Below, one piece after another: positions 2,649-23,449 of a DNA stretch of 24,000 nt; within the stretch, counting starts at the first letter, position 1; every line of letters begins with the position of its first letter. Under the pieces are notes generated by a model. That model worked only from the letters and a program-made list of their open reading frames with translations, made no database searches and was not told where the DNA came from. Origin of the DNA: Synechococcus sp. KORDI-49 (lineage in GTDB: Bacteria; Cyanobacteriota; Cyanobacteriia; PCC-6307; Cyanobiaceae); assembly GCF_000737575.1 (NCBI RefSeq), contig NZ_CP006270.1, positions 41,163 through 65,162 of the forward strand. The letters are read 5' to 3'. The position numbers and the translations under genes were made by a program.

Positions 2649-3318
2649 TGCGCCGCTCGGCCCCGATCGAGCTCGGCAGGCTCAGCTCTCCCCTCCGGCG
2701 CAGGGCCACCACGTCCCGATAGCGGCTGGCGATCGCTTCATCGTTGGGCCGATGCTGCAAAGCCCAGTGCAGATTCGCTTCCGTGTATTCATGGGCGCAG
2801 CAGACCTTGGTGCGGTCCGGCAGGCCAGCCAGCCGCTGCATCGCCCGGTGCATGTCCGCCGGCGTTCCTTCCATCAGTCGTCCGCACCCAGCTGAGAACA
2901 GGGTGTCCCCGCAGAACAGGACGGGGCCGAGATCCGGGTCCTCCTCTTCAGGCAGCAGGAAGGCGATGTGATTGGCGGTGTGGGCCGCCACATCGAGCAC
3001 CTGCAGCTGGCGCCTGAGCAATGGCACCGCATCCCCGTCCGCAACGGAGATGGTCTGGAAGGGGATCCGTGTCCTGTCAGACGCTGCGGCGATCACATCT
3101 GCCGTCGGCCACCGCTCCAGCAGCGCTGGAGTTCCGCCGATGTGGTCGGCATGGTGATGGGTCTGCAACACCGCCACCAGCGTCAGATCCCTCTGCTCCA
3201 GCCAGACCTGAACGGGTTCGGCCACCGCTGGATCCACCACCACGGCGTTCCCGTCGCGCTCCCAGATCCAGATGATGTTGTCCTGCAGCACCGGCAGGGC
3301 ATGAAGCGCGGAACGCAT
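2569..3318 (-). CDS. gloB: hydroxyacylglutathione hydrolase (glyoxalase II), 249 aa
   Basis: From the internal ATG (cat at 3316-3318): '[20 protein letters not shown]...'. Metallo-beta-lactamase motif [10 protein letters not shown]; [12 protein letters not shown]; [14 protein letters not shown]; C-terminal [11 protein letters not shown], typical of GloB. The upstream 68 codons of the track ORF are discarded. Confidence 0.9.
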
Positions 3319-3349
3319 CGTTAAAGTCCAGCCTTGTATCCCGGCCCCC

Positions 3350-4000
3350 ATGATCACCGTCGCACTGGCCAAGGGGGCGCTGCTCAAGGATTCGGTGACC
3401 CGATTCGCGGCGGCCGGGCTCGATTTCTCCGCTGTTCTCGACAAGAACAATCGCCAGTTGATGTTGCCCACCCCCTGCGGTCGGGCCCGCGCCCTGCTAG
3501 TGCGCAATGGAGATGTTCCCACCTACGTGGCCTATGGCCAGGCCCAGCTCGGTGTGGTGGGGTACGACGTTCTTCGGGAGCACCAGCTCCCCGTCGCCCA
3601 GCTGGTGGACCTCGGTTTCGGCGGCTGCCGCATGGCGGTGGCGGTGAAGGCCAGCAGCGGTTACACCCGTGCCGCCGACCTGCCCCCCCACTGCCGTGTC
3701 GCCAGCAAGTTCACCCACTGTGCCCGGGCGTTCTTCGATGCTCTCGACCTGCCTGTGGAGCTGGTGCATCTGAACGGTTCCGTCGAACTCGGCCCGATCA
3801 CCGGCATGTCGGAGGCGATCGTTGATCTGGTGGCCACCGGCCGCACCCTGCGGGACAACGGGCTGGTGGCGATCGAGGATCTGTTCCAGTCCACCGCCCG
3901 CCTGGTGGGCCATCCCCTGTCCCTGCGCCTCGACACGGGCGAACTGGGAGCCATTGTTGACGCCATGCGCCTTGCGCAACCGGTCGGAGCCATGGCCTGA
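3350..4000 (+). CDS. hisG: ATP phosphoribosyltransferase, short form (216 aa)
   Basis: '[15 protein letters not shown]...[27 protein letters not shown]...[15 protein letters not shown]...[28 protein letters not shown]' matches HisG along its whole length. The length fits the HisZ-dependent short form. Confidence 0.92.
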
Positions 4001-5778
4001 TGAATGTCATCGGGGACTGGCAGCGGGTTCGCCGCCTCGGGCGATACCTGGCTCATGACCGGCGCCGACTGGTGCTCACCGTGCTGCTGCTGCTGCCCGT
4101 CGCTCTGGCGGGGTCGATCCAGCCTCTGCTGGTCGGCCAGGCGATCAGTGTGCTTCGCGGCGAAGCGAGCCTGCCGTGGCTCGCGGATCGCTCCACCCAG
4201 GAGGCGATGCGGATCATCGTCGGGCTGCTGCTCTGCGCTGTGCTGCTGCGTCTGGGGCTGCTGGGGCTGCAGACCTTCAACATCCAGGCGGTTGGGCAGC
4301 GTCTCACCGCCCGCATCCGAGACGATCTGTTCAAGCACGCGCTGGCGCTGTCGCTGCGGTTTCACGACTCCATGCAGGTGGGCAAGTTGCTCACCCGACT
4401 CACCAGTGATGTGGATGCCCTCGCCGAGGTGTTCGGCAGCGGTGCCGTCGGCGTGCTCGGCGATCTGGTCAGTCTTGTGGTCATCGCCGTCTCGATGCTG
4501 CTGATCGAATGGCGCATCGGTCTGCTGTTGCTGGTCACCCAGATTCCCGTGACCATGGTGGTTCTCTGGCTGCAGGGCCGCTACCGCGTGGCCAACTACA
4601 GCGAAAGGGAAGAGCTTTCCAAACTCAATGCCGACTTCCAGGAGAACCTGCAGGGTCTGGAGGTGGTGCAGATGTTCCGCCGCGAGGAGGTCAACAGCCG
4701 GCGCTTCCTGAAAACGGGTCTTGCCTACCGCCGTGCCGTCAACGGCACCATTTTCTTCGACAGCAGCATCTCCGCCTTCCTGGAATGGGTGGCGCTCGGA
4801 GCGGTGGCCTTCGTCCTGGCGCTCGGCGGCTGGATGGTCACCGACGGAGCGATGGGTCTGGGCATCCTCACCACCTTCATCCTCTACTCCCAGCGACTGT
4901 TCGATCCCCTGCGGCAGCTGGCGGAACGATTCACGCAGATCCAGCGCGGCCTGACGGCCGTGGAGCGCATCGGTGAACTGATGGAGGAGCCCCTCGAGAT
5001 CCTGGAGGCCAGAGACGCGCGCCCGCTCAACGGCAGCGGCATCGGAGAGGTGATCTTCGAGGACGTCTGCTTCGGTTACAGGCCGGATGAGCCGATCCTT
5101 CACCATCTCTCCTTCCGGATCGCTCCCGGCGAACACGTGGCCCTGGTGGGACCCACCGGCTCCGGTAAGACCACCGTGATCCGTCTGCTCTGCCGTCTCT
5201 ATGAGCCGCAGCGGGGACGCATCCTTCTTGATGGTCGCGACATCCGCAGCATCCCGATCGCCGATCTGCGGCGGCAGCTGGGGGTGGTGCTGCAGGACAC
5301 CTTTCTGTTCAGCGGCAACGTCGCCGACAATCTGAGGCTCAATGCCGACATCAGCGACGGGGAGCTGCAGGGGATCTGCCGCGACCTCGGCCTTGATCCC
5401 CTCTTCGCCCGTCTGCCCCAGGGTCTGCAGACTCCGCTGCGGGAACGGGGCGGCAATCTCTCCTCCGGAGAGCGCCAGCTGCTGGCGGTCGCCCGGGTGG
5501 CGATCCGCAACCCCACCGTGCTGGTGATGGATGAAGCCACCGCTTTCATGGATCCAGCGACGGAAGCCACGTTGCAGCGGGATCTCGACCGCCTGCTGCA
5601 GAGACGCACCGCCGTGGTGATCGCTCACCGGCTGGCGACAGTGGAGGCTTCCGACCGCATCCTGGTGTTGCGCCGGGGTGAGCTGATCGAGCAGGGCACC
5701 CACCTTGAGCTGCGCGCTCGCGGGGGCCTCTACGCCCAGCTGGCGGATCTGCAGGAGCGGGGGTTGGCCAGACTGTGA
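4000..5778 (+). CDS. ABC exporter, fused permease/ATPase (MsbA/MdlB-like), 592 aa
   Basis: N-terminal six-helix ABC membrane domain followed by Walker A GPTGSGKTT, signature LSSGERQLLAVARV, Walker B VLVMDEATAFMD and H-loop VIAHRL. The ATG at 4000 shares one nucleotide with the hisG TGA (TGATG). Confidence 0.9.
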   Translation: MNVIGDWQRVRRLGRYLAHDRRRLVLTVLLLLPVALAGSIQPLLVGQAISVLRGEASLPWLADRSTQEAMRIIVGLLLCAVLLRLGLLGLQTFNIQAVGQRLTARIRDDLFKHALALSLRFHDSMQVGKLLTRLTSDVDALAEVFGSGAVGVLGDLVSLVVIAVSMLLIEWRIGLLLLVTQIPVTMVVLWLQGRYRVANYSEREELSKLNADFQENLQGLEVVQMFRREEVNSRRFLKTGLAYRRAVNGTIFFDSSISAFLEWVALGAVAFVLALGGWMVTDGAMGLGILTTFILYSQRLFDPLRQLAERFTQIQRGLTAVERIGELMEEPLEILEARDARPLNGSGIGEVIFEDVCFGYRPDEPILHHLSFRIAPGEHVALVGPTGSGKTTVIRLLCRLYEPQRGRILLDGRDIRSIPIADLRRQLGVVLQDTFLFSGNVADNLRLNADISDGELQGICRDLGLDPLFARLPQGLQTPLRERGGNLSSGERQLLAVARVAIRNPTVLVMDEATAFMDPATEATLQRDLDRLLQRRTAVVIAHRLATVEASDRILVLRRGELIEQGTHLELRARGGLYAQLADLQERGLARL

Positions 5779-12521: not shown

Positions 12522-13898
12522 ATGGATGCCGATTTTGATCTGATCGTTCTGGGAGCGGGTTCCGGTGGTCTGGCTGCCGCCAAGCGGGCGGTTCGCCACG
12601 GGGCGCGGGTGGCGATTGCGGAAGGAGATCGGGTCGGGGGGACCTGCGTGATCCGTGGCTGTGTTCCGAAAAAGCTGCTGGTCTACGGCGCGCAGGCCCG
12701 GCATCAGCTGCAGGACGCGCCCTCCTATGGCCTGCACGTGGAGGCTGTGCGCTCGGATGTGAGTGAACTGCTGGAGCGCGTGCGTTCGGAGGTTGATCGC
12801 CTCAACCTCCGCCATCGCCAGATGCTCTCGGAGGCCGGGGTGGAGTTGCTGCAGGGCTGGGGCCGGTTCACGGCTCCTGATCGCATCGGTCTGTCCGCCA
12901 CGCCCGGTGGACCGATCGAGCGAGAGCTCGGAGCAGCCCGGATTCTGATCGCCGTCGGCGGTCAGCCGATCCGGCCCTCGATCCCCGGCGCGGAACACAC
13001 CTGGCTGAGTGACGACATGTTCCTGCAGGAGACCTACCCGGATCAGGTCGTGGTGGTGGGTGCTGGATTCATCGCCTGTGAATTCGCCTGCATCCTCCGG
13101 GGCCTCGGGGTCTCGGTGACCCAGGTGGTGCGGGGCTCCCGTCTGCTGCGGGGCTTTGACCATGAGCTGGCCGATGCGGTTCTGACCGGGATGCAGGACA
13201 GCGGCATCCAGGTGTTGTTCGATCGCACGGTCCATGCCGTCGACCGCGTGTCGCCCGATGACCCGTCAGCCGGGTTGACGGTGGAGCTGTCTGATGGCCG
13301 CCACCTCCCCTGCGGCGGCGTGCTGATGGCCACGGGCCGTCGTCCCCGGCTGGAGGGGCTCGGCCTCGAGATCGCCGGCGTCGCGGTCGACCGTGGACGC
13401 GTTCTGGTGGATGCGGATCAGGCCACGTCCGTGCCCCACATCCATGCCGTCGGCGACGTCACCGATCGGATCAACCTCACACCGGTGGCCATCGATGAAG
13501 GCAGGGCCTATGCCGACAGCGTCTTCGGCGGCAGGCCGCGGCAGGTGAATCACGACCTGGTGGCCACCGCGGTGTTCTCCGACCCGGAACTGGCCAGCGT
13601 CGGATTGTCGGAACAGGCTGCGATCGAGCGCTTCGGCGAGGAAGCGGTCACGGTGCACCGGGCCCGCTTCCGTTCGATGTCCAGAGCGCTTCCCGCCAGC
13701 GGTCATCGCTGTCTGCTGAAGCTTGTGTTGCAGCGGGAGGGAGGCCGTGTGCTCGGCTGCCACATGGTGGGAGAGCACGCCGCGGAGATCATCCAGATGG
13801 CGGCCATCGCCGTTGGAATGGGAGCCACCAAGGCTGATTTCGATCGCACCATGGCGCTGCATCCCTCCGTCTCGGAGGAGTTCGTGACCATGGGGTGA
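12522..13898 (+). CDS. gor: glutathione-disulfide reductase (458 aa)
   Basis: From the internal ATG 12522: 'MDADFDLIVLGAGSGGLAAAKRA' (FAD GxGxxG); redox-active disulfide 'GGTCVIRGCVPKK'; NADPH site 'VVVVGAGFIACEFA' with 'VVRGSRLLRGFD'; C-terminal 'ALHPSVSEEFVTM' (His-Glu pair). ATG 12498 is an alternative start. Confidence 0.9.
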   Translation: MDADFDLIVLGAGSGGLAAAKRAVRHGARVAIAEGDRVGGTCVIRGCVPKKLLVYGAQARHQLQDAPSYGLHVEAVRSDVSELLERVRSEVDRLNLRHRQMLSEAGVELLQGWGRFTAPDRIGLSATPGGPIERELGAARILIAVGGQPIRPSIPGAEHTWLSDDMFLQETYPDQVVVVGAGFIACEFACILRGLGVSVTQVVRGSRLLRGFDHELADAVLTGMQDSGIQVLFDRTVHAVDRVSPDDPSAGLTVELSDGRHLPCGGVLMATGRRPRLEGLGLEIAGVAVDRGRVLVDADQATSVPHIHAVGDVTDRINLTPVAIDEGRAYADSVFGGRPRQVNHDLVATAVFSDPELASVGLSEQAAIERFGEEAVTVHRARFRSMSRALPASGHRCLLKLVLQREGGRVLGCHMVGEHAAEIIQMAAIAVGMGATKADFDRTMALHPSVSEEFVTMG

Positions 13899-13920
13899 TG
13901 ATCCGGATCGGCTCTGTCAA

Positions 13921-13937
13921 GCAGGTCAGTGACCTGC
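13921..13937. promoter_or_regulatory. perfect 17-bp palindrome GCAGGTCA-G-TGACCTGC between gor and the exbB-like gene
   Basis: Read directly from the sequence. It lies 23 nt after the gor stop and 37 nt before the exbB-like TTG start. A TAATTT -10-like hexamer sits at 13956-13961, so the right arm falls at about the -35 position. No U-tract follows. Confidence 0.3.
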
Positions 13938-13973
13938 AGAACCAGTGTTTCGACCTAATTTCTGGGCATTCGC

Positions 13974-14486
13974 TTGATCCGGTTGTTCGGCGCTGAGGCA
14001 CTGAAGCAGGGAGGTGCGCTGATGGCACCGTTGCTGCTGCTCTCCATCGCTGTGCTCTCAGCAGGATTCGAGCGCCTGATCTACTGGCTGAGCTGGAGGC
14101 GGGAGCAGCCCGGTTGCCTCGATGCCCTCCGGACCTCCCTGTCAGGGCTGACCAACGCCGAAGCCAGCAGGGTGCTCGAACAGAAACTGCGCCGACTGGA
14201 TCGCCAATTCAGCCGCTGGGAGCCCAGCCTTGATCTGGCGATGGTGCTGGGTCCCCTGATGGGGTTGCTCAGCACGGTGCTGGGACTGATGAAACTTCTC
14301 CAGGCCCTCGGTCCGGATCTCCTGCTTCCCAGGGGGGAGACCCTGCTGTCGGATTACGGGACCATTCTGGTAGGCACGGCTCTCGGGCTGGTGGTGGCGA
14401 TGGTGGCGCTGCTGGTGCAGCGCATCAATCGCATGCAGCGCCGGTCCGTTGTGGCGCAGTTGCGCGAGGCCTGTCTGGAGGTCTGA
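13974..14486 (+). CDS. MotA/TolQ/ExbB-family proton-channel protein (170 aa from TTG; 154 aa from ATG 14022)
   Basis: Three predicted TM helices. 'KQGGALMAPLLLLSIAVLSAGFERLIYW', 'LGPLMGLLSTVLGLM' and 'GTALGLVVAMVALLVQRI' match the family signature helices (canonical APLLGLLGTVxG and ALxTTAxGLxVAIPA). The TTG start retains the conserved segment preceding TM1. Confidence 0.8.
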   Translation: MIRLFGAEALKQGGALMAPLLLLSIAVLSAGFERLIYWLSWRREQPGCLDALRTSLSGLTNAEASRVLEQKLRRLDRQFSRWEPSLDLAMVLGPLMGLLSTVLGLMKLLQALGPDLLLPRGETLLSDYGTILVGTALGLVVAMVALLVQRINRMQRRSVVAQLREACLEV

Positions 14487-14843
14487 ATGCCGCTTGTCCT
14501 CGCCCTCAGCGCTGTCACCGTGACGTTGACGACAGCCCTGGCACTGCTCCCGAGTGCTCTAAGAGAGACACCGATCGAGAGTCCAAGCGTCCCCCTGGTC
14601 GACAGCCAGGCCGAACGCTGGTTCGTTGTGCGCTCCTCCAGCGGCAGCTGGTATCTGAACGGCGAGCCGATGGCCTCCAATCTTCTGGCTCGGATCCTCA
14701 TGGGGCCGGACCTGCCTCCGGGTGGCGTCAGCTTCCTGCCGTCCAGTGCCAGATCGGCCTCGCTGGTGGCCGACGATCTGGCCTGGCTACAGAGCAACAG
14801 CGCTGGTCCGGTGCGTCTGCAGCTGGAGGAGATCCAGCTGTGA
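14487..14843 (+). CDS. divergent ExbD/TolR-like protein 1 (118 aa)
   Basis: The ATG directly follows the exbB-like TGA. It has a single N-terminal TM (MPLVLALSAVTVTLTTALALL). The ~90-aa periplasmic part, 'WFVVRSSSGSWYLNGEPMASNLLARIL...VSFLPSSARSASLVADDLAWLQSNSAGPVRLQL', follows the ExbD pattern: strand-turn-strand, L-N-G-x-P, then a slowly varying block ending in a V-x-L strand. It has no cytoplasmic tail and no TM Asp. Confidence 0.5.
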   Translation: MPLVLALSAVTVTLTTALALLPSALRETPIESPSVPLVDSQAERWFVVRSSSGSWYLNGEPMASNLLARILMGPDLPPGGVSFLPSSARSASLVADDLAWLQSNSAGPVRLQLEEIQL

Positions 14844-15196
14844 CCTCCTCCTCTCTGCGCTGGTCGGTCGGTTTCTCCCTGGTCGCCGTGTCCCAGCTGC
14901 TGCTGATCACGGGATTGATCGTTCTGCCCCAGTGGCGGGCCCAGATGTCTGCCCGGGATGGGGTGATCACCTTCTTCGTGGGTAGGGACGGTTCAGTCCG
15001 TCTCTGGAATCGCCCCATCGATGCGGCGGTGATGCCCGCCCTGGTTCAACGGGCCGAACGCTTCAACGCCACCGCCCGCGTGCGGCTGGTGGCGTCACCC
15101 GGGGTCACCTGGGGTGTGGTGCAGGACCTTGTCTCCCTTCTTGATCAGACATCACTCGATGTTGAACTTCAGCTCCCTCCGACAGCGCGCTCCTGA
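14840..15196 (+). CDS. divergent ExbD/TolR-like protein 2 (118 aa)
   Basis: The GTG start overlaps the preceding stop (GTGA). TM 'WSVGFSLVAVSQLLLITGLIVL' is followed by 'VITFFVGRDGSVRLWNRPIDAAVMPALVQRAERFNATARVRLVASPGVTWGVVQDLVSLLDQTSLDVELQL', which has the same ExbD-like layout as the gene before it. No TM Asp. Confidence 0.5.
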   Translation: MTSSSLRWSVGFSLVAVSQLLLITGLIVLPQWRAQMSARDGVITFFVGRDGSVRLWNRPIDAAVMPALVQRAERFNATARVRLVASPGVTWGVVQDLVSLLDQTSLDVELQLPPTARS

Positions 15197-15827
15197 GCTG
15201 CTGCTGCTCGCACTTCCCGTCGGCCTCTCTCTGGTTGTTCACAGCGTCTGGATCTCCAGAGACGGCGCTGAAAGCAGAGTGGGTGATTCGGACCAGAGCG
15301 TCAGCATCGACAACACCGCCCAGCTGGTGCGGATCACCCGACGGGCATCACAACAGCAGACGCTGGCTGCTGTGGGGTTGGATCTGAGCGGCACGCTTCC
15401 TCCCCCGGCTGCCGACGTGCTGCAGAAGATCGAGCTGCCTGACCCCAAGCCGGACTGCCCACCCCAGCAACAACGGGTGACCACCAAGGTGCTGCCGGAT
15501 GTCAGTGCACCAACGGCGATTCCGGCACCCCAGGAGCAGACGGCTCAGCGGCAGGAATCGGTCGTTGCAACGGCGCCGAGCGCGCCGTTGCAAGCGCTGG
15601 ACGGGGTCGCTCTCGATCGGCTGTGGGGACTGGCGATGGGGGTGCCGGTCTGGCCGGAAGACCTGCTGGGGCCGAAGCCGGTGATCGGAGAACTGCGGGA
15701 GCTCTCGCTCGACGACGTTGCCGACATGGATGCAACGGATCTTCATGAGCTCTCCGTTGAGGCGGAGTCCGGCACCTATCTGGTGAAGGTTTTCGGAGAC
15801 AGGGTTTTCCTGCTGAGAGAACCCTGA
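15159..15827 (+). CDS. TonB-like membrane-anchored protein: SxxxH anchor, Pro-rich spacer, unassigned C-terminal domain (222 aa)
   Basis: From ATG 15159 (38-nt overlap with the previous gene): 'MLNFSSLRQRAPELLLLALPVGLSLVVHSVWI'. A basic patch precedes a TM helix containing S-L-V-V-H (codons at 15228-15242), compared with E. coli TonB S-V-C-I-H. A Pro/Gln-rich stretch follows ('LPPPAADVLQKIELPDPKPDCPPQQQ...PTAIPAPQEQ', about 15391-15540), then a ~75-aa C-terminal domain without the TonB_C YP motif. Confidence 0.55.
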   Translation: MLNFSSLRQRAPELLLLALPVGLSLVVHSVWISRDGAESRVGDSDQSVSIDNTAQLVRITRRASQQQTLAAVGLDLSGTLPPPAADVLQKIELPDPKPDCPPQQQRVTTKVLPDVSAPTAIPAPQEQTAQRQESVVATAPSAPLQALDGVALDRLWGLAMGVPVWPEDLLGPKPVIGELRELSLDDVADMDATDLHELSVEAESGTYLVKVFGDRVFLLREP

Positions 15828-15898
15828 GTCGGTCGCAACAGCGACAGGGACCGGGCCAAGAGGACCTTATGGTGAAGTTAAGAATGCGTTAATGCCTG

Positions 15899-16378
15899 AT
15901 GCCCACTCTCCTGCTTCTGCTCCTCGCGTCGTGGCTTGGGGTGGGAACCGTGCAGGGGGGCGAGTGGTGCAGGTCTCAGGAGGGGGCGGTCGGCAGTTAC
16001 GACCCCGGACGGCAGGAGATCAACCTGTGCATGGAGCGGATCCGTGAGAAACAGCGATCCCCGATGGAAGTGGCGCGGCACGAGCTGTTTCATGCCGTGC
16101 AGCACCTGTTCGGGCGCAATGGCCGCAGTTTCCTCAGTGATGACCAGATCACGCCCCTGGTGCGCTGGCTGATGGACGACGGTGAAGTGATGGCCGTGCT
16201 CATGCTCTATCCCAGTGAGGAGATCAACAGCGAGCTGGAGGCACGTCTCGTGTCGCGATTGCTGCCCAATGAGGTCATCGGTGGTGCTCTGCTGGCAGGT
16301 CGGCTGCTCCAGGACGCACCACAGCAGGGACCGATCGGATCCTTGCGGGCCTACCTGCTCGGTCGCCCTGATTCCTGA
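15899..16378 (+). CDS. secreted small protein with an HExxHxxxH metal-binding-type motif (159 aa)
   Basis: Signal peptide 'MPTLLLLLLASWLGVGTVQG'; two Cys (C24, C44); 'VARHELFHAVQH' forms an HExxH zincin-like motif with a third His four residues later. It resembles the 'HELxHVxQ' core I recall from DUF4157. It lies on the same strand as the TonB-like gene, 71 nt downstream. Confidence 0.6.
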   Translation: MPTLLLLLLASWLGVGTVQGGEWCRSQEGAVGSYDPGRQEINLCMERIREKQRSPMEVARHELFHAVQHLFGRNGRSFLSDDQITPLVRWLMDDGEVMAVLMLYPSEEINSELEARLVSRLLPNEVIGGALLAGRLLQDAPQQGPIGSLRAYLLGRPDS

Positions 16379-16388
16379 TGTCCGACGC

Positions 16389-17894
16389 TTAGGCGAGGGT
16401 GTCCGCCAGGCGAAGGGCCAGCGCGATCACCGTGAGGCCCGGTCCGACGCTCGGACAGCTCGGGAAGACACTCGCATCGGCGAGGTAGAGGTTGTCAAGC
16501 TCATGGCACTTGCCGAAGCCATCGACCACGGAGCTCGAGGGATCCTCACCCATGCGGCAGGAACCGCAGCCATAACCCACAACGCTCATCGGTGCTCCAC
16601 CGCGGGCATGGGTGGGTGCCTTCAACACCACCTTGGTCACCGGATCCTTCTCCACCTCCTTCAGGGTGTCGATCCAGCGGTAGACCAAGCGGTCATGCGC
16701 TTCCCGGTTGTTGTGGATGTAATTGATCCTGATCTGGTCGTTGTGCAGCCAGATCTTGTTATGGGGATCCGGCATCACCTCCGTCATCGCCCACCAGGCG
16801 ACGGAGCGGGACGCCAGTCGCTCAAGGCCGAAATCGGGGATCATTTTGCTCACCAGGGAAAGCACTGGTGGTGACTCGGCAAACAACGCGTCCTGCAGAA
16901 CGCCTCCGGCTGTCTGGATGTGGCCAAGCGGGAAGCTGACGTTCTTGTCACCCCAGTAGTAGTCGTTGATGCCCAGAGAGCGCCCGTATCTGCCGCTGTT
17001 GCGTTCCGTGGCCAGCTGCAGGATCGAGGTGAGCTGAAGATTCATCAGATTGCGGCCCACCTGATCGGAGCCGTTGCTGATGCCTTTGGGGTGGTGCGAG
17101 TTCGCCGAACGCAGCAGGATCACCGGGGTGTTCACGGCCCCGGCCGCCAGCACCACGACATCAGAGCGGAACAGCCAGGTGTCGCCATCCAGCTCCGCCT
17201 CCACGGCCTTCACCTCACTGCCGCTGGGGTTCACATGCAGTCGCAGCACCCTGGCGTTGTCGCGGATGGTGAGCCGGTCTGGATCTCCGGCTTCAAGGCC
17301 GAACAGCTGGGAATCGCCGCTCGGGTCGTCCCGATCTTCGGACCAGCTGATCGGAATGTCGTACGGCTGGCATCCCTGGCGTTGCAGCGCGGCACGCAGG
17401 GGTTCGAGGAACGGCTCCACCGGCTTGGGCATGGCCACGTAATCACCGTTGCGGCCCGGCTCGGTGGGGTCCACCCCCGCCTTGCCGTGCACCCGGTACA
17501 ACTGCTCCGCCTGCTCGTAGTACGACGCCAGTTCGCCGTAGTCGAATGGCCAGGCCGGCGAGATCCCCTCCTGAAGAGGAACTTCGCCGAAGTCCTGCTC
17601 GCGCATGCGCTCGAGCACAGCTCCCCAGATCTTGGTGTTGCCGCCGCGGGCGTAGGTGGTCTGGGGCGCGAAGGGATCGCCGTCCGGCCCGAACCAGCGT
17701 TCGTTCTTGGGGTGGTAGCGGTCCTTGCGGAACAGATCCACGTCGGCGACGTTCTGGTCCTCGAGAGCCATGGCCCCGCCGCGCTCCAGCACCAGCACGG
17801 ATTTGCCCTTGCGGCTGAGGGCACCGGCCAGGGTGCCGCCACCGGCTCCGCTGCCGATGACGATGACGTCGTAATGGCGGTCGTCGATGATCAT
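16389..17894 (-). CDS. GMC-family FAD-dependent oxidoreductase (501 aa)
   Basis: N-terminal 'YDVIVIGSGAGGGTLAGALSRKGKSVLVLERGG' (FAD ADP-binding fold), mid 'VVVLAAGAVNTPVILLRS', C-terminal 'LYLADASVFPSCPSVGPGLTVIALALRLADTL' (GMC_oxred_C). The start lies 4 nt after the ctaE stop. Confidence 0.88.
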   Translation of the reverse strand: MIIDDRHYDVIVIGSGAGGGTLAGALSRKGKSVLVLERGGAMALEDQNVADVDLFRKDRYHPKNERWFGPDGDPFAPQTTYARGGNTKIWGAVLERMREQDFGEVPLQEGISPAWPFDYGELASYYEQAEQLYRVHGKAGVDPTEPGRNGDYVAMPKPVEPFLEPLRAALQRQGCQPYDIPISWSEDRDDPSGDSQLFGLEAGDPDRLTIRDNARVLRLHVNPSGSEVKAVEAELDGDTWLFRSDVVVLAAGAVNTPVILLRSANSHHPKGISNGSDQVGRNLMNLQLTSILQLATERNSGRYGRSLGINDYYWGDKNVSFPLGHIQTAGGVLQDALFAESPPVLSLVSKMIPDFGLERLASRSVAWWAMTEVMPDPHNKIWLHNDQIRINYIHNNREAHDRLVYRWIDTLKEVEKDPVTKVVLKAPTHARGGAPMSVVGYGCGSCRMGEDPSSSVVDGFGKCHELDNLYLADASVFPSCPSVGPGLTVIALALRLADTLA

Positions 17895-17898
17895 GGGA

Positions 17899-18495
17899 TT
17901 ACTGCCAGACGTAGATGAGGAGGAAGAGGATGATCCAGATCACATCGACGAAGTGCCAGAACAGGCTCACCGAAGCGACGCCCATTTCGCCCTTGTCGTA
18001 ATTCCCCGGACGAAAGGAACGCGCCAGCATCAGGCCCATCAGCAGGATGCCGGTGATCACGTGCAGACCGTGAAAGCCGGTGAGCAGATAAAACATCCCG
18101 CCGAACACACCGCTGCTGAGGCTGAAGGTGAGCTCCGACCATTCGACGTACTGCCCGTAGACGAAGTACGAGCCCATGGCCATGGTGAGCAGCCACACCG
18201 CCCGGAAGCCCCAGAGGTTGCGCTGATGCAGGTAGCGCTCAGCGAAGTAGGCAACAAAGCTGGAGCTCACCAGCACCACGGTGTTGATCAGTGGCATGCG
18301 CACCTCCAACCCCGCGACACCATCCGGGAGCCATTGGGGGGCCGTGAGCTTGAGCACCGCGTAGCCGGCGAAGAAGGCCAGGAAGATCACGCTCTCGGAG
18401 CAGAGGAAGATCACGAAACCGGTCATGTTGTGACCGTCGTGCTTCACATGCCCGGGGGTGTGATTCAGCTGCAGATCGGGGTTGACGCTGGTCAT
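17899..18495 (-). CDS. ctaE: heme-copper oxidase subunit III (198 aa)
   Basis: 'GFVIFLCSESVIFLAFFAGY...FGGMFYLLTGFHGLHVITGILLM...SVSLFWHFVDVIWIILFLLIYVW' is the typical COX3 sequence. The start lies 4 nt after the ctaD stop. Confidence 0.93.
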   Translation of the reverse strand: MTSVNPDLQLNHTPGHVKHDGHNMTGFVIFLCSESVIFLAFFAGYAVLKLTAPQWLPDGVAGLEVRMPLINTVVLVSSSFVAYFAERYLHQRNLWGFRAVWLLTMAMGSYFVYGQYVEWSELTFSLSSGVFGGMFYLLTGFHGLHVITGILLMGLMLARSFRPGNYDKGEMGVASVSLFWHFVDVIWIILFLLIYVWQ

Positions 18496-18499
18496 CGGG

Positions 18500-20188
<1,689 letters not shown>

Positions 20189-20196
20189 GGCGCGTC

Positions 20197-21132
20197 TCAG
20201 GCGTCGTGGGGGATGGAGGGATCGCCGGGGTCGTTCACCATCGGAGCCGGTGCGGGTGGCACCGTTGCCCAGCCCTTGTCACCGCGGGCGATGCGGCGGT
20301 CATACAGCGGGCGGCCTGGATCGAGTCCGGGCTGCAGAGGCTGCTGGGCTGTTGTTTTCAGCCAAGCGCTGAAGGCCTCCTCCGATTCGACGATCACGTC
20401 GGTCTGGTTCTGCGAGAAGTACGCGCCGCTGAACATGGCGTCGCGCAGCCGGAAGCGGCCTTCTTTGGTTGGCGTGAGGCTGTAGGAAATGATGCTTCCG
20501 GGGATGATGTCCTGCTTCAGACGGAAGGCCGGAACGAAGAAGCTGTGCAGCACGTCTTCCGAGATCAGCCGGAAATTGACCCGTTGATCAATCGGAAGAT
20601 GCAGTTCTGAACTGCGCACACCATTGGGGTAGATGAATTCCCAGCTCCACTGGCGGGCGATCACATCGATCGGTCCCACATCCGCCATGGGATCGGCTTC
20701 CATCAGTGCGGTCGGATCGGTGCCGATGACGTATTTGTGCTTCGGACCGAGGGTCTGAAGCTTCATGTTCACGTTCATCGTGTAGGTGGCGATCACAAAG
20801 ACCGTCACCAGCGGAATGATCGTCCAGATGATTTCCAGCTTGGTGTTGCCTTCGATCGGAGCACCGTCGCTTTCGTCGTACTTGCCGGCCCGGTTGAACA
20901 GCAGCACCCAGCCCATCACTCCGGTGCAGCCGAAGAAGATGAAGGAGCCGATACCGGTTTCAAGCGCGAACAGATCGTCGACGTAGGACGCTGCACTGGA
21001 TGCCTGCGGCGGGAACCAGCTGTACGACCAGGTCGCCATCAGTTTGGCGATCACCAGGTTGATCGCCACGGCGATCGTGATGCCCACGATGGCGCCGATG
21101 TTCGGGCTTTTCTTGGGGGCAGTGGTGGTCAT
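20197..21132 (-). CDS. ctaC: heme-copper oxidase subunit II lacking the CuA centre (ARTO/quinol-oxidase-type CtaC), 311 aa
   Basis: COX2 fold: two N-terminal TMs, 'ARQWSWEFIYPNG' and 'SEDVLHSFFVPAFRLKQDIIPG'. Where the CuA pattern V-x-H-x(34)-C-x(3)-C-x(3)-H-x(2)-M is expected, the sequence reads V-L-H196-x(34)-D231-x(3)-S235-x(3)-F239-x(2)-N242. Confidence 0.9.
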   Translation of the reverse strand: MTTTAPKKSPNIGAIVGITIAVAINLVIAKLMATWSYSWFPPQASSAASYVDDLFALETGIGSFIFFGCTGVMGWVLLFNRAGKYDESDGAPIEGNTKLEIIWTIIPLVTVFVIATYTMNVNMKLQTLGPKHKYVIGTDPTALMEADPMADVGPIDVIARQWSWEFIYPNGVRSSELHLPIDQRVNFRLISEDVLHSFFVPAFRLKQDIIPGSIISYSLTPTKEGRFRLRDAMFSGAYFSQNQTDVIVESEEAFSAWLKTTAQQPLQPGLDPGRPLYDRRIARGDKGWATVPPAPAPMVNDPGDPSIPHDA

Positions 21133-21749
21133 GGCAGCACCTCCTTCAGATCGGCACCGGCGGCGAGCAGCTGATCCGCGGTGATGTGCACGCCGAAATC
21201 ACTGGCCAGCCAGGCGCCGAGACTGCCGTGCAGACCCATGACCATCAGCATCGAGGCCCCGCAGAACAGGTACAGCCAGGTCACCTGGCGTCCCAGATCC
21301 CTGCGCCAGACGAAGCGCTGGTAGCCGCGCCAGACGGTCATGGCGACGATCACCAGAAGAATGGCGACCCCCCCGATGGCATGCCACAGCATGGTGTCGA
21401 TGGCGGTCTGGCCGAGGATGCTGCGGATGCCGGGCAGCGGCACCGCCAGCAGCATTTCGTAGAAACCGGCGGCCACCGTGAAGAAGGTGATGCCGCTGCA
21501 GGCCACCAGGTTGTACCAGCCCACATCGTGGAAACCGCTGCGGGTCACCGGCAGGGCCAGGAAGCGGAACAGCCGCTTCTCCAGCGGATAGAAGGCACCG
21601 GCGAAGTCGAAGGCGATTCCGATCGCAAACAGCCCGATGGTCAGATGAACCAGATTCGGGTGCAGTGGAATCGCGTAGGGAAGATCATTGGCACCGAGAG
21701 AGTCGGCGATTTCGTTGATCGGCGATGGGATGGCGGCGAGCAGGGTCAT
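21129..21749 (-). CDS. DUF2231-like polytopic membrane protein B (206 aa)
   Basis: From the internal ATG 21749 ('MTLLAAIPSPINE...'), which overlaps the upstream stop (ATGA). Its own stop overlaps the ctaC ATG (ATGA). It has 4-5 TM helices and conserved His motifs 'LHPNLVHLTIG', 'MLWHAIGG' and 'MGLHGSLG'. Confidence 0.7.
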   Translation of the reverse strand: MTLLAAIPSPINEIADSLGANDLPYAIPLHPNLVHLTIGLFAIGIAFDFAGAFYPLEKRLFRFLALPVTRSGFHDVGWYNLVACSGITFFTVAAGFYEMLLAVPLPGIRSILGQTAIDTMLWHAIGGVAILLVIVAMTVWRGYQRFVWRRDLGRQVTWLYLFCGASMLMVMGLHGSLGAWLASDFGVHITADQLLAAGADLKEVLP

Positions 21750-22246
21750 GACACCACTCCCTGGCGGATCGCTTCCACCACCGGCACGGTGTGCAATCCG
21801 TAGACCCACACCAGTTTGTCGCCGAGATACACCTGGACGAACACCAGACCGGCCAGCACGAGATCAAGAGCCAGAAAGCCCTTCGGCAGGACAGTGGGAT
21901 CCTTCTGGCGAGCCACGTAGCGCCATCCGGTGAGCAGAGCCAGCACACCGGCAAGGGACCAGCCGATGGTGCTGTGGACATTGAGGATGTCTCGCGAGGC
22001 CCCGTAGGGATTGGCGAGGCCGGCTTCGATCTGTCCGAAGATGATGGCAACGAAGATCGCTACTGTGGCGACGAGCAGATTCCAGAAGCTCACTTCAAAG
22101 AGGTTCTTCTTTCCGGTCACCACCCCGATCACGTCGAAGACGACCGTGATCAGTGCCATGGAGATCACGAAGTGGACGACGATCGGATGAATGACGTCGA
22201 GCCAGGGGAGATTTTTATCGTTGAGCGCAGGTAGAAGATCGAGCAT
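21746..22246 (-). CDS. DUF2231-like polytopic membrane protein A (166 aa from ATG 22246; 172 aa from GTG 22264)
   Basis: 'MLDLLPALNDKNLPWLDVIHPIVVHFVISMALI...NVHSTIGWSL...YGLHTVP' has four TM helices and carries the same His motif set as protein B (HPxxVH, HxxIG, GLH). It is the first gene of the oxidase block. Confidence 0.7.
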   Translation of the reverse strand: MLDLLPALNDKNLPWLDVIHPIVVHFVISMALITVVFDVIGVVTGKKNLFEVSFWNLLVATVAIFVAIIFGQIEAGLANPYGASRDILNVHSTIGWSLAGVLALLTGWRYVARQKDPTVLPKGFLALDLVLAGLVFVQVYLGDKLVWVYGLHTVPVVEAIRQGVVS

Positions 22247-22339
22247 CGGCAAGCCGAGAGGCACGCTTCCAAAGCATGGACATCGTTTTCGGGACGGTCA
22301 TCCCTGAATGTGGAAATACAACTGGCCTGGTTGTCTGAC

Positions 22340-23449
22340 TCACCTGAGGGAGTGATCGGCGCTACGGCGCGTCGTGCGCCAGTAGATGACCGCCTGCGTG
22401 ATGATCAGAATCATCACGATCGGCATCACCAGGCAGAGAATCGCCAGCCGGTATTCATCAGACCATTCCGACAACTGGGTTCTGGGAAGAACGTTGTCGG
22501 TGATGTACAGCACATAGAGGCCGAGCAGCAGCCCCCCTTCCAGACGGCTGATCTGACCTCGGGTCCAGAAGATCGGCAGGCAGGCCAGGCTGGTGAGCAG
22601 CATCACCGGAAGGTCTTCGCTGATCAGCTCCGGGCTCACGTCCAGGCCGCGCCCTGCGGCCATCAGGGCTCCGCCGCCCAGCACCATCATCAGATTGAGC
22701 AGGCAGCTGCCCACCACGTTGCCGATCGCCAGATCGGTGCGCCCCCGCAACGCCGCCACCAGGGAGGTGATCAGCTCCGGCATCGAGGTGCCCGCCGAGA
22801 CAATCGTGAGTCCGATCACGGCTTCACTGACGCCGAGCAGTGTGGCCGCTGTGGTGGCTCCGCCCACCAGCACCTTCGATCCAATCGTCAGCACGACGAT
22901 GCCGGCGAGCAGCTTCAGAACCGCCACCTGCCAGCCACCACTGGCCGCATCCGCATCGATCTCCGGTTCCGCCCCTTCGGTGGCATCCGGTTCCTCCCTG
23001 GCCGTGCGGATCTCCCAGATGGTGTTGATCACAAGGCCCAGCAGCAGGGCGATGCCGGCCTGCCAGGTCAACCGTCCTGCAGAGGCCATGCCCCAGACCG
23101 CTGCGGAGATGGCGATCATCAGCGGAACATCCCGACGCACCAGTCGGCTTTCAACGCGCAGCGGCAACACCACGGCGCTGCTGCCCAGCACCACCATCAC
23201 ATTGAAGATGTTGCTGCCCACCGCGTTGCTCACCGCCAGGGCATCAGCGCCCTGCAGCACTGAATTGATGCTCACGAACAGTTCGGGAGCGCTGGTGCCC
23301 AGAGCCACCACGGTCAGGCCGATCACCAGCTGTGGGATGCCGAAGATCACCGCCAGGGCGACGGCCCCCTGCACGAATAGTTCGCCGCCACCGAACAGCA
23401 GGGCGATACCGATCAGCACTTCCAGTGACGCCTGCAGGAATTCCGGCAT
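22340..23449 (-). CDS. CaCA-family cation/Ca2+ antiporter (YrbG/NCKX-like), 369 aa
   Basis: Two alpha-repeats, 'GLTVVALGTSAPELFVSI' and 'GLTIVSAGTSMPELITSL', each followed by 'GN(A/V)VGSN/C'. About 10 TM helices with a central acidic loop (EEPDATEGAEPEIDADA). Confidence 0.9.
   Translation of the reverse strand: MPEFLQASLEVLIGIALLFGGGELFVQGAVALAVIFGIPQLVIGLTVVALGTSAPELFVSINSVLQGADALAVSNAVGSNIFNVMVVLGSSAVVLPLRVESRLVRRDVPLMIAISAAVWGMASAGRLTWQAGIALLLGLVINTIWEIRTAREEPDATEGAEPEIDADAASGGWQVAVLKLLAGIVVLTIGSKVLVGGATTAATLLGVSEAVIGLTIVSAGTSMPELITSLVAALRGRTDLAIGNVVGSCLLNLMMVLGGGALMAAGRGLDVSPELISEDLPVMLLTSLACLPIFWTRGQISRLEGGLLLGLYVLYITDNVLPRTQLSEWSDEYRLAILCLVMPIVMILIITQAVIYWRTTRRSADHSLR

Follow-up and report, generated by a model that had tools for sequence, protein, structure and literature searches.

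The protein encoded at positions 15159-15827 on the + strand of a 24,000-nucleotide stretch of the Synechococcus sp. KORDI-49 genome (NZ_CP006270.1, positions 41,163 to 65,162; hereafter the window) is probably the fourth subunit of a picocyanobacterial inner-membrane module, which it would link to something further out in the envelope. The protein, here termed T, is a TonB/TolA analogue by architecture and context and is not a member of the TonB family. Its gene closes a compact run of four genes on the + strand, and the module consists of one ExbB-like protein, two different ExbD/TolR-like proteins (orfB and orfC) and T itself. T is taken as the output subunit of the ExbB-like/ExbD-like complex because its anatomy fits the three-domain plan of TonB and TolA and its gene context fits their motors. 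The C-terminal domain of T is not TonB_C and has no detectable relatives outside the T family.

Architecture and conservation of T

T is encoded by a genuine gene that is conserved in marine Synechococcus and in related picocyanobacteria. The product begins MLNFSSLRQRAPELLLLALPVGLSLVVHSVWI, and the ATG at 15159 is judged the right start because close homologues match it in length (222 amino acids, aa) and in their N-terminus, MLNFSSLRQ. A word-indexed search returned 27 relatives, and an exhaustive HMMER profile search of 1.84 billion representatives returned 38 members at E ≤ 1e-3, of which 20 also passed E ≤ 1e-10; each of the 38 shares one architecture or is a fragment. Among the family members with high GC are L010, L015 and L016 (67-69% GC) and L019, which belongs to Cyanobium sp. 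CZS 25K; others lie at about 48-50% GC. Automated annotation misses T, as the first-pass annotation of this DNA had expected, since all named database copies are called 'hypothetical protein' (e.g., in Synechococcus sp. BS301-5m-G54). A chance open reading frame (ORF) could be suspected in G+C-rich DNA, where long shadow ORFs arise on both strands; this reading is refuted, as homologues down to about 24% identity keep one domain order, the codon-position GC of the frame (0.73/0.45/0.74) is coding-like, the C-terminal domain folds confidently in an AlphaFold2 (AF2) model and constraint varies by domain along the protein. The parts of T are as follows.

15159..15827, + strand: T, 222 aa, protein of TonB/TolA architecture (from homologues and gene linkage)
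15189..15257, + strand: N-terminal membrane anchor of T, aa 11-33, with Pro20 and His28 (codon 15240-15242) (from hydropathy)
15306..15410, + strand: juxtamembrane conserved block of T, aa 50-84 (from family conservation and substitution rates)
15411..15596, + strand: variable Pro/Ala/Gln-rich linker of T, aa 85-146, predicted to be disordered
15597..15824, + strand: C-terminal globular domain of T, aa 147-222, about 75 aa, a small alpha/beta fold in the AF2 model

Residues 11-33 are the single hydrophobic segment of T, and the AF2 model draws a helix over residues 5-39. Arg8 and Arg10 precede the segment; by the positive-inside rule, T is predicted to have one N-terminal membrane helix with its N-terminus in the cytoplasm. 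Pro20 is kept in 22 of 26 family members, and position 28 holds His in 22, Asn in three and Gln in one of the 26. The first-pass annotation had pointed to an S-x3-H pair at S24 and H28 (nt 15228-15242) as a conserved anchor of the TonB kind; the residues are where it placed them (codons 15228-15230 and 15240-15242), and among orthologues the His/Asn persists but the Ser does not, with Ser in 2/25 and Ala in 23/25 at position 24. Taken alone, an S-x3-H within a membrane helix is hardly informative, and it is the His/Asn conservation and the gene linkage that go beyond chance. The P-x7-H spacing of T equals that of P12 and H20 in TonB, which is a resemblance and not evidence of homology. When the T family is aligned with E. 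coli TonB by hhalign, the membrane segment alone is matched (15 residues, E 0.14, not significant), with H28 placed on H20 and S24 on S16. About 14 uncharged residues precede the His of T and 5-12 follow it, compared with 11 and 16 in E. coli TonB. The SHLS motif of the TonB helix is S-x3-H-x6-L-x3-S (PMC12215075); its Leu and second Ser positions fall on D35 and S39 of T, outside the membrane segment.

The most conserved part of T lies past this helix, in a conserved segment that spans 16-50 residues beyond it. The block reads (V/I)-D-N-T-x-(Q/E)-L-(V/L)-R-x-(T/S)-R-R at residues 50-62, then L-x-L, then a near-invariant L-P-P-P-P at residues 80-84; L56 and P83 are invariant, and T53, R58, P81 and P82 are kept in at least 90% of members. 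The ratio of non-synonymous to synonymous substitution rates (dN/dS) is 0.11-0.19 in the block, the lowest in T, and 0.3-0.5 elsewhere, with saturated dS. In TonB, a D-box (QPISVTMVTPAD, residues 43-54) is held by ExbD (PMC10907165), and this D-box or motor box is placed just past the membrane helix (PMC10907165, PMC12204202). The block of T starts about 16-18 residues after its helix and the D-box about 11 after that of TonB; because the positions are parallel, the periplasmic domains of the ExbD-like proteins may dock on the block, by analogy with the D-box. As a separate observation, the T segment LAAVGLDLSGTLPPPA (aa 69-84, 15363-15410) resembles the C-terminus of orfC, LDQTSLDVELQLPPTA (aa 101-116, 15140-15187), at a non-significant hhalign E of 0.2, and the likeness may be due to chance or to a common short strand-plus-proline motif.

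The linker that follows has a predicted local distance difference test score (pLDDT) below 50 in the AF2 model over residues 86-144. Its length varies across the family from 41 to 175 aa; Pro makes up 8-23% of it and Ala as much as 30%. The middle of T had been described as rich in Pro, Gln and Ala, and the composition agrees, with 14 Pro, 10 Ala and 9 Gln in the 67 residues from 80 to 146.

The C-terminal domain is modeled with a pLDDT of about 85-93. Its predicted elements are helices at residues 149-158, 167-170, 184-187 and 192-195 and strands at 178-182, 198-202, 205-212 and 215-221, giving a layout of helix, loop, strand, two short helices and a three-stranded meander. Trp156 is invariant, and the motifs (L/V)-R-x-L-(P/S)-L and G-D-x-(V/L)-(W/F)-L-L-R-x-P are kept. 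Pfam and NCBIfam gave no match at E ≤ 1 for T or for any of 26 diverse members, while in the same search the positive controls, E. coli TonB and TolA, scored 5.8e-20 for TonB_C and 2e-38 for TolA_C, respectively. A sequence-profile search of the PDB with the T family alignment was empty, and hhalign found nothing in the C-terminal parts of E. coli TonB or TolA; against TolA it matched 11 residues just past the helix (E 0.21, not significant). Foldseek with the full-length T model reached a best E of 0.26 against the PDB, where none of the 50 matches listed was a TonB or TolA chain, and found nothing significant in BFVD (best E 0.099). The domain is unrelated to both ExbD-like families by hhalign, and at HMMER sensitivity it was found in no other architecture among the 1.84 billion representatives. 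With the profile, PDB, hhalign and Foldseek searches all negative while the control scores, the domain is not TonB_C. Foldseek matches to Roadblock/LAMTOR proteins were set aside as chance, with E of about 0.9 or higher and a target TM-score of about 0.35.

The first-pass annotation had called this region acidic, without a YP motif and unlike TonB_C, and had suggested a profile and Foldseek check. The last point is borne out by both kinds of search, with no TonB_C at E ≤ 1 and no TonB among the 50 Foldseek matches listed, and the last 75 residues do lack YP. Their pI is indeed 4.1; however, values in the family range from 4.1 to 10.7, and acidity is specific to the clade of the window and is no family trait.

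The partner proteins and the four-gene module

The three genes upstream of T encode the following proteins.

13974..14486, + strand: minimal MotA/ExbB-family protein, 170 aa from a TTG start at 13974, PF01618 at E 5.7e-13
14487..14843, + strand: orfB, first ExbD/TolR-like protein, 118 aa, membrane segment at aa 1-25 with the helix starting at residue 2
14840..15196, + strand: orfC, second ExbD/TolR-like protein, 118 aa, one membrane helix and a periplasmic domain of ExbD fold

The junctions are a TGAATG between the ExbB-like gene and orfB, a GTGA overlap between orfB and orfC, and a 38-nt overlap between orfC and T, the last of which is kept in L001, L015 and L018. Such adjacent or overlapping stop and start codons suggest translational coupling of the four genes.

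The ExbB-like protein matches PF01618 above the cut-off and gives weak ExbB/TolQ/MotA matches in NCBIfam and the PDB. Many gene callers start it at Met17, giving 154 aa; the TTG at 13974 is favored because the 16 residues upstream of that Met (FGxxALKQGGxLM) are kept in distant loci. Three hydrophobic segments correspond to three membrane helices, with a short cytoplasmic loop. The protein is unusually small (154-170 aa); compared with E. coli ExbB and TolQ, it lacks most of the C-terminal tail and of the cytoplasmic loop that joins the first two transmembrane helices (TM1 and TM2). In the alignment with these two proteins, Thr148 and Thr181 (here T101 and T135, the Thr pair of TM2 and TM3) and Ser34 (here S24 of the ExbB-like protein) are kept, the Ser being invariant, and the equivalent of Glu176 of ExbB is lost. 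In ExbB, Ser34 contacts S16 and H20 of TonB, and Trp38 and Pro190 relay the contact (PMC12215075). Antibody heavy-chain matches in the PDB to the N-terminal 40 residues were spurious and were disregarded.

Neither orfB nor orfC has a match in Pfam, including to PF02472, or in NCBIfam. The AF2 model of orfC (mean pLDDT 78) has as its top five Foldseek matches the periplasmic domain of E. coli ExbD (8pek, 8p9r, 8vgd and 8vgc among them), followed by TolR (5by4). The ExbD matches have an E of 1.2e-4 to 8e-4 and a root-mean-square deviation of 2.0-2.1 Å over 70-72 alignment columns, with a target TM-score of 0.62 for 8pek and 0.77-0.80 for the other four. By hhalign, orfC reaches E 0.095 with E. 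coli ExbD (55 columns, in register) and E 0.15 with TolR, neither significant; orfC is thus ExbD-like by its predicted structure and not by sequence profiles. One orfC homologue is labeled ExbD by the Joint Genome Institute. The orfB and orfC families align with each other end to end (hhalign E 1.5e-4, 105 columns), and the composition of the module follows from this alignment and from the match of the orfC model to ExbD structures.

The membrane Asp of these systems (D25 in ExbD, D23 in TolR) is the canonical proton-binding residue and is essential in ExbD, TolR and MotB. The orfB and orfC ORFs cannot be extended upstream to supply it. Among 11 loci compared, orfC has an Asp at the start of its helix in L016, L019 and L020 only, and these are three of the four loci with Gln at the start of TM2 in the ExbB-like protein, 14 residues before the conserved Thr. 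The seven loci with Asp or Glu at that TM2 position (D86 in the window, within SLDLAMVLGPL) have no acid at the orfC helix start. From these sequences, the two helices may hold a swapped polar pair or a relocated charge; the pattern is broken by L022, which has neither acid, and it covers few lineages.

Twelve related loci are long enough for the whole set to be visible (L001, L002, L003, L007, L008, L010, L016, L018, L019, L020, L021 and L022), and each of them has the same four-gene order, across T identities of about 24-98%. The flanking genes differ in L010, L016, L018, L019, L020 and L022, and as the set persists where its flanks change, the four genes are a conserved unit. The linkage of T to ExbB/ExbD-like genes that the first reading had stressed therefore holds in 12/12 loci, including those at about 24% identity and those with different flanks. 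Pattern scans of genomes and metagenomes found two and four loci, respectively; these used strict patterns and are no measure of distribution. In the lineage of about 48-50% GC, a 470-nt spacer lies between orfC and T in L017 (656-1126), and an unrelated AT-rich ORF precedes T in L009 (1-553); outside this lineage, orfC and T overlap.

A close comparison is offered by L011, a 99.2% identical metagenomic contig whose positions 2816-5220 correspond to 13974-16378 of the window. The module differs by six amino-acid changes, and five of these belong to T (five non-synonymous and two synonymous changes), so T evolves much faster than its partners; the ExbB-like gene has no non-synonymous and eight synonymous changes.

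Proposed role of T and the alternatives

By analogy with the known motors, the ExbB-like protein would form a pentamer around a heterodimer of orfB and orfC, and the helix of T would pack on the outside of this pentamer. The juxtamembrane block could be gripped by the periplasmic domains of orfB and orfC, as the D-box is by ExbD, the LPPPP motif and linker would cross the periplasm, and the C-terminal domain would bind peptidoglycan or an outer-membrane partner. As this domain is not TonB_C, its target is probably not a classical Ton box; as there is also no transporter gene nearby, a Tol-like role in envelope maintenance or tethering is more likely than classical TonB-dependent import. Cyanobacteria are not known to have Tol-Pal, so that a Tol-like envelope role would be vacant. 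The earlier proposal of a TonB analogue with a different target-recognition domain stands as far as architecture, a non-TonB_C end and gene linkage go, while the S-x3-H pair and acidity are given up as its defining features.

Several observations weigh against T as the output subunit of such a motor. No significant sequence similarity of T to TonB or TolA was found by hhalign, and just one of the four SHLS positions, the His, is conserved, at a place about four residues nearer the periplasm than the His of TonB. Residues 50-63 of the block are drawn by AF2 as a low-confidence helix (pLDDT about 55-64), where a motor box would be expected as a beta-strand. In the ExbB-like protein, Trp38 and Pro190 of ExbB are not conserved, and neither orfB nor orfC carries an Asp or Glu in its helix in the window, L001, L003, L007 and L018.

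With the membrane Asp missing, the complex may or may not be driven by ions as other such motors are, and therefore appreciable weight, though well short of an even chance, is kept by an explanation that sees in the module a degenerate ExbB/ExbD relative without ion drive, and in T a passive envelope-spanning tether, scaffold or signaling adaptor. In favor of this rather unlikely alternative, the ExbD-like proteins of the marine clade have no membrane Asp and none is universal across the family, the equivalents of Glu176, Trp38 and Pro190 are lost, and the ExbB-like protein is without most of the cytoplasmic domain. Set against this, the Thr ring of the ExbB-like protein, which faces the Asp in known motors, is conserved, the orfC Asp is present in L016, L019 and L020, and the Asp or Glu of the ExbB-like protein stands exactly where those loci have Gln, which may be a relocated charge. 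The conservation of the four genes as a unit, and an ExbB-like gene with eight synonymous and no non-synonymous changes relative to L011, also count against this alternative. It is improbable that T is co-transcribed with its neighbors and otherwise independent of them, for instance as a membrane-anchored periplasmic binding protein or an assembly factor: the spacer of L017 and the intervening ORF of L009 would suit such a protein, but the linkage is strict across about 24-98% identity and changing flanks, and the most conserved parts of T are the His/Asn of its helix and its juxtamembrane block, as expected of an interface with membrane partners.

A true, highly diverged TonB orthologue, whose end domain still binds Ton boxes and energizes uptake, is more improbable still. 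The layout and gene neighbors of T are as in tonB-exbB-exbD, and the spacing P-x3-(S/A)-x3-H aligns with P12, S16 and H20 of E. coli TonB; in addition, cyanobacteria with ExbB and ExbD and no recognizable TonB are noted in the literature (bioRxiv 10.1101/2021.11.08.467730). Yet TonB_C gave no signal in the 26 family members under conditions where the control was found, and neither the empty PDB profile search nor the 50 Foldseek matches listed recovered TonB or TolA, despite a pLDDT of about 90 for the domain. The order of secondary-structure elements in the end domain also appears to differ from that of TonB_C. No TonB-dependent transporter gene was found by Pfam annotation in the window, and such transporters are not known from most marine picocyanobacteria. 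Those that have them carry a canonical TonB/ExbB/ExbD set.

If T is the output subunit of the module, a broader picture may be drawn, which is tentative and less probable than that assignment itself: marine Synechococcus and Cyanobium-type relatives could possess an ExbB/TolQ-family envelope machine of their own, made of a minimal ExbB, an ExbD-like heterodimer whose Asp is lost or moved to the ExbB-like protein, and a TonB-shaped transducer with an end domain of new fold that acts on an outer-membrane or peptidoglycan target.

Relation to known systems and genomic surroundings

T shares with TonB, which works in an ExbB5-ExbD2-TonB complex, a single N-terminal membrane helix in which a conserved His comes eight residues after a Pro, a conserved stretch not far beyond the helix, a Pro-rich spacer, a small globular C-terminal domain and a gene that adjoins exbB-like and exbD-like genes. 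It differs from TonB in having no TonB_C by profile or fold, in keeping just the His of SHLS, placed nearer the periplasm, in a juxtamembrane block unrelated in sequence to the D-box, and in its motor partners, a minimal ExbB plus two distinct ExbD-like proteins that lack the membrane Asp. With TolA, which works in a TolQ5-TolR2-TolA complex, T has in common the three-domain logic and the same kind of motor. Unlike TolA, it has no PF06519 match or significant hhalign similarity, no tolB or pal gene nearby, and a spacer that is disordered and rich in Pro, Ala and Gln, where that of TolA is a long helix.

A precedent is offered by the recently described motor-driven force transducers of von Willebrand factor A (vWA) type (Williams-Jones et al., Mol Biol Evol 2025, PMC12204202). 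These have the shape of TonB but end in a vWA domain, and their genes follow one tolQ-like gene and two tolR-like genes that differ from each other. Their function is unknown and their hosts are Planctomycetes-Verrucomicrobia-Chlamydiae (PVC) bacteria, Proteobacteria and Bacteroidetes (PMC12204202); cyanobacteria are mentioned twice in that paper, both times for earlier TonB surveys only. T resembles these transducers in its membrane-helix His, its disordered, Pro-rich linker, its non-TonB_C end domain and the one tolQ-like and two tolR-like genes upstream. It differs in that its end domain is a 75-aa alpha/beta domain and not vWA, no tetratricopeptide repeat (TPR) gene is present, the Ser of SHLS is absent, and the lineage is that of picocyanobacteria. 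What appears to be new here is a variant among the periplasmic force transducers of ExbB/TolQ-type complexes, if T acts as one, with a C-terminal domain without relatives and a motor of unusual features.

Few phototrophs on Earth are as abundant as marine Synechococcus and its relatives, yet the energizing of processes at their outer membrane is hardly understood. Surveys that seek TonB by its C-terminal domain report ExbB and ExbD without TonB in several cyanobacteria (bioRxiv 10.1101/2021.11.08.467730); the search criteria for TonB in another study use PF03544 (PMC9122953). If such an orphan complex had a conserved partner of TonB shape with another end domain, this would be its output arm, and T would be a concrete handle for finding what the complex acts on. 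T would also extend the view that the C-terminal domains of transducers driven by ExbB/TolQ-type complexes are interchangeable (PMC12204202), and with the canonical Asp missing from the ExbD-like pair, it becomes a question of mechanism how, or whether, such a complex is driven by ions. Although unannotated, the system is conserved in highly abundant organisms, and no paper on this cluster in Synechococcus or Prochlorococcus was found in the literature.

The rest of the window is unremarkable chromosome of a G+C-rich marine Synechococcus, with genes for ABC transporters, an HtrA-type protease, dnaA, a glutathione S-transferase (GST), glutathione reductase, a GMC oxidoreductase, cytochrome oxidase and a Na/Ca exchanger. 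PADLOC gave no defense-system signal (of Zorya type) for T and its neighbors, and BLAST of the module against a phage collection gave no match. A scan for promoter and terminator consensus sequences over 13700-16500 returned nothing, which is uninformative for a cyanobacterium. One further ORF follows the module.

15899-16378, + strand: ORF of 159 aa with an HExxH motif (HELFHAVQH) and an N-terminal hydrophobic leader, MPTLLLLLLASWLGVGTVQG

This ORF has a weak match to a Zn-peptidase family (PF04298, E 0.004), and ORFs of its type trail the module in the window, L001, L002 and L021 and not in L010, L016, L018, L019, L020 or L022. In L010 and L018, genes for a Na/Ca exchanger and a SulP protein come directly after the module. 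The Na/Ca exchanger gene of the window lies at 22340-23449, about 6.5 kb further from the module than in those two loci; the interval between (16389-22264) holds the GMC oxidoreductase, the cytochrome oxidase genes and two DUF2231 genes, the latter assigned by synteny with L001. As these genes fill the interval in the window and not in L010 or L018, the block is lineage-specific.

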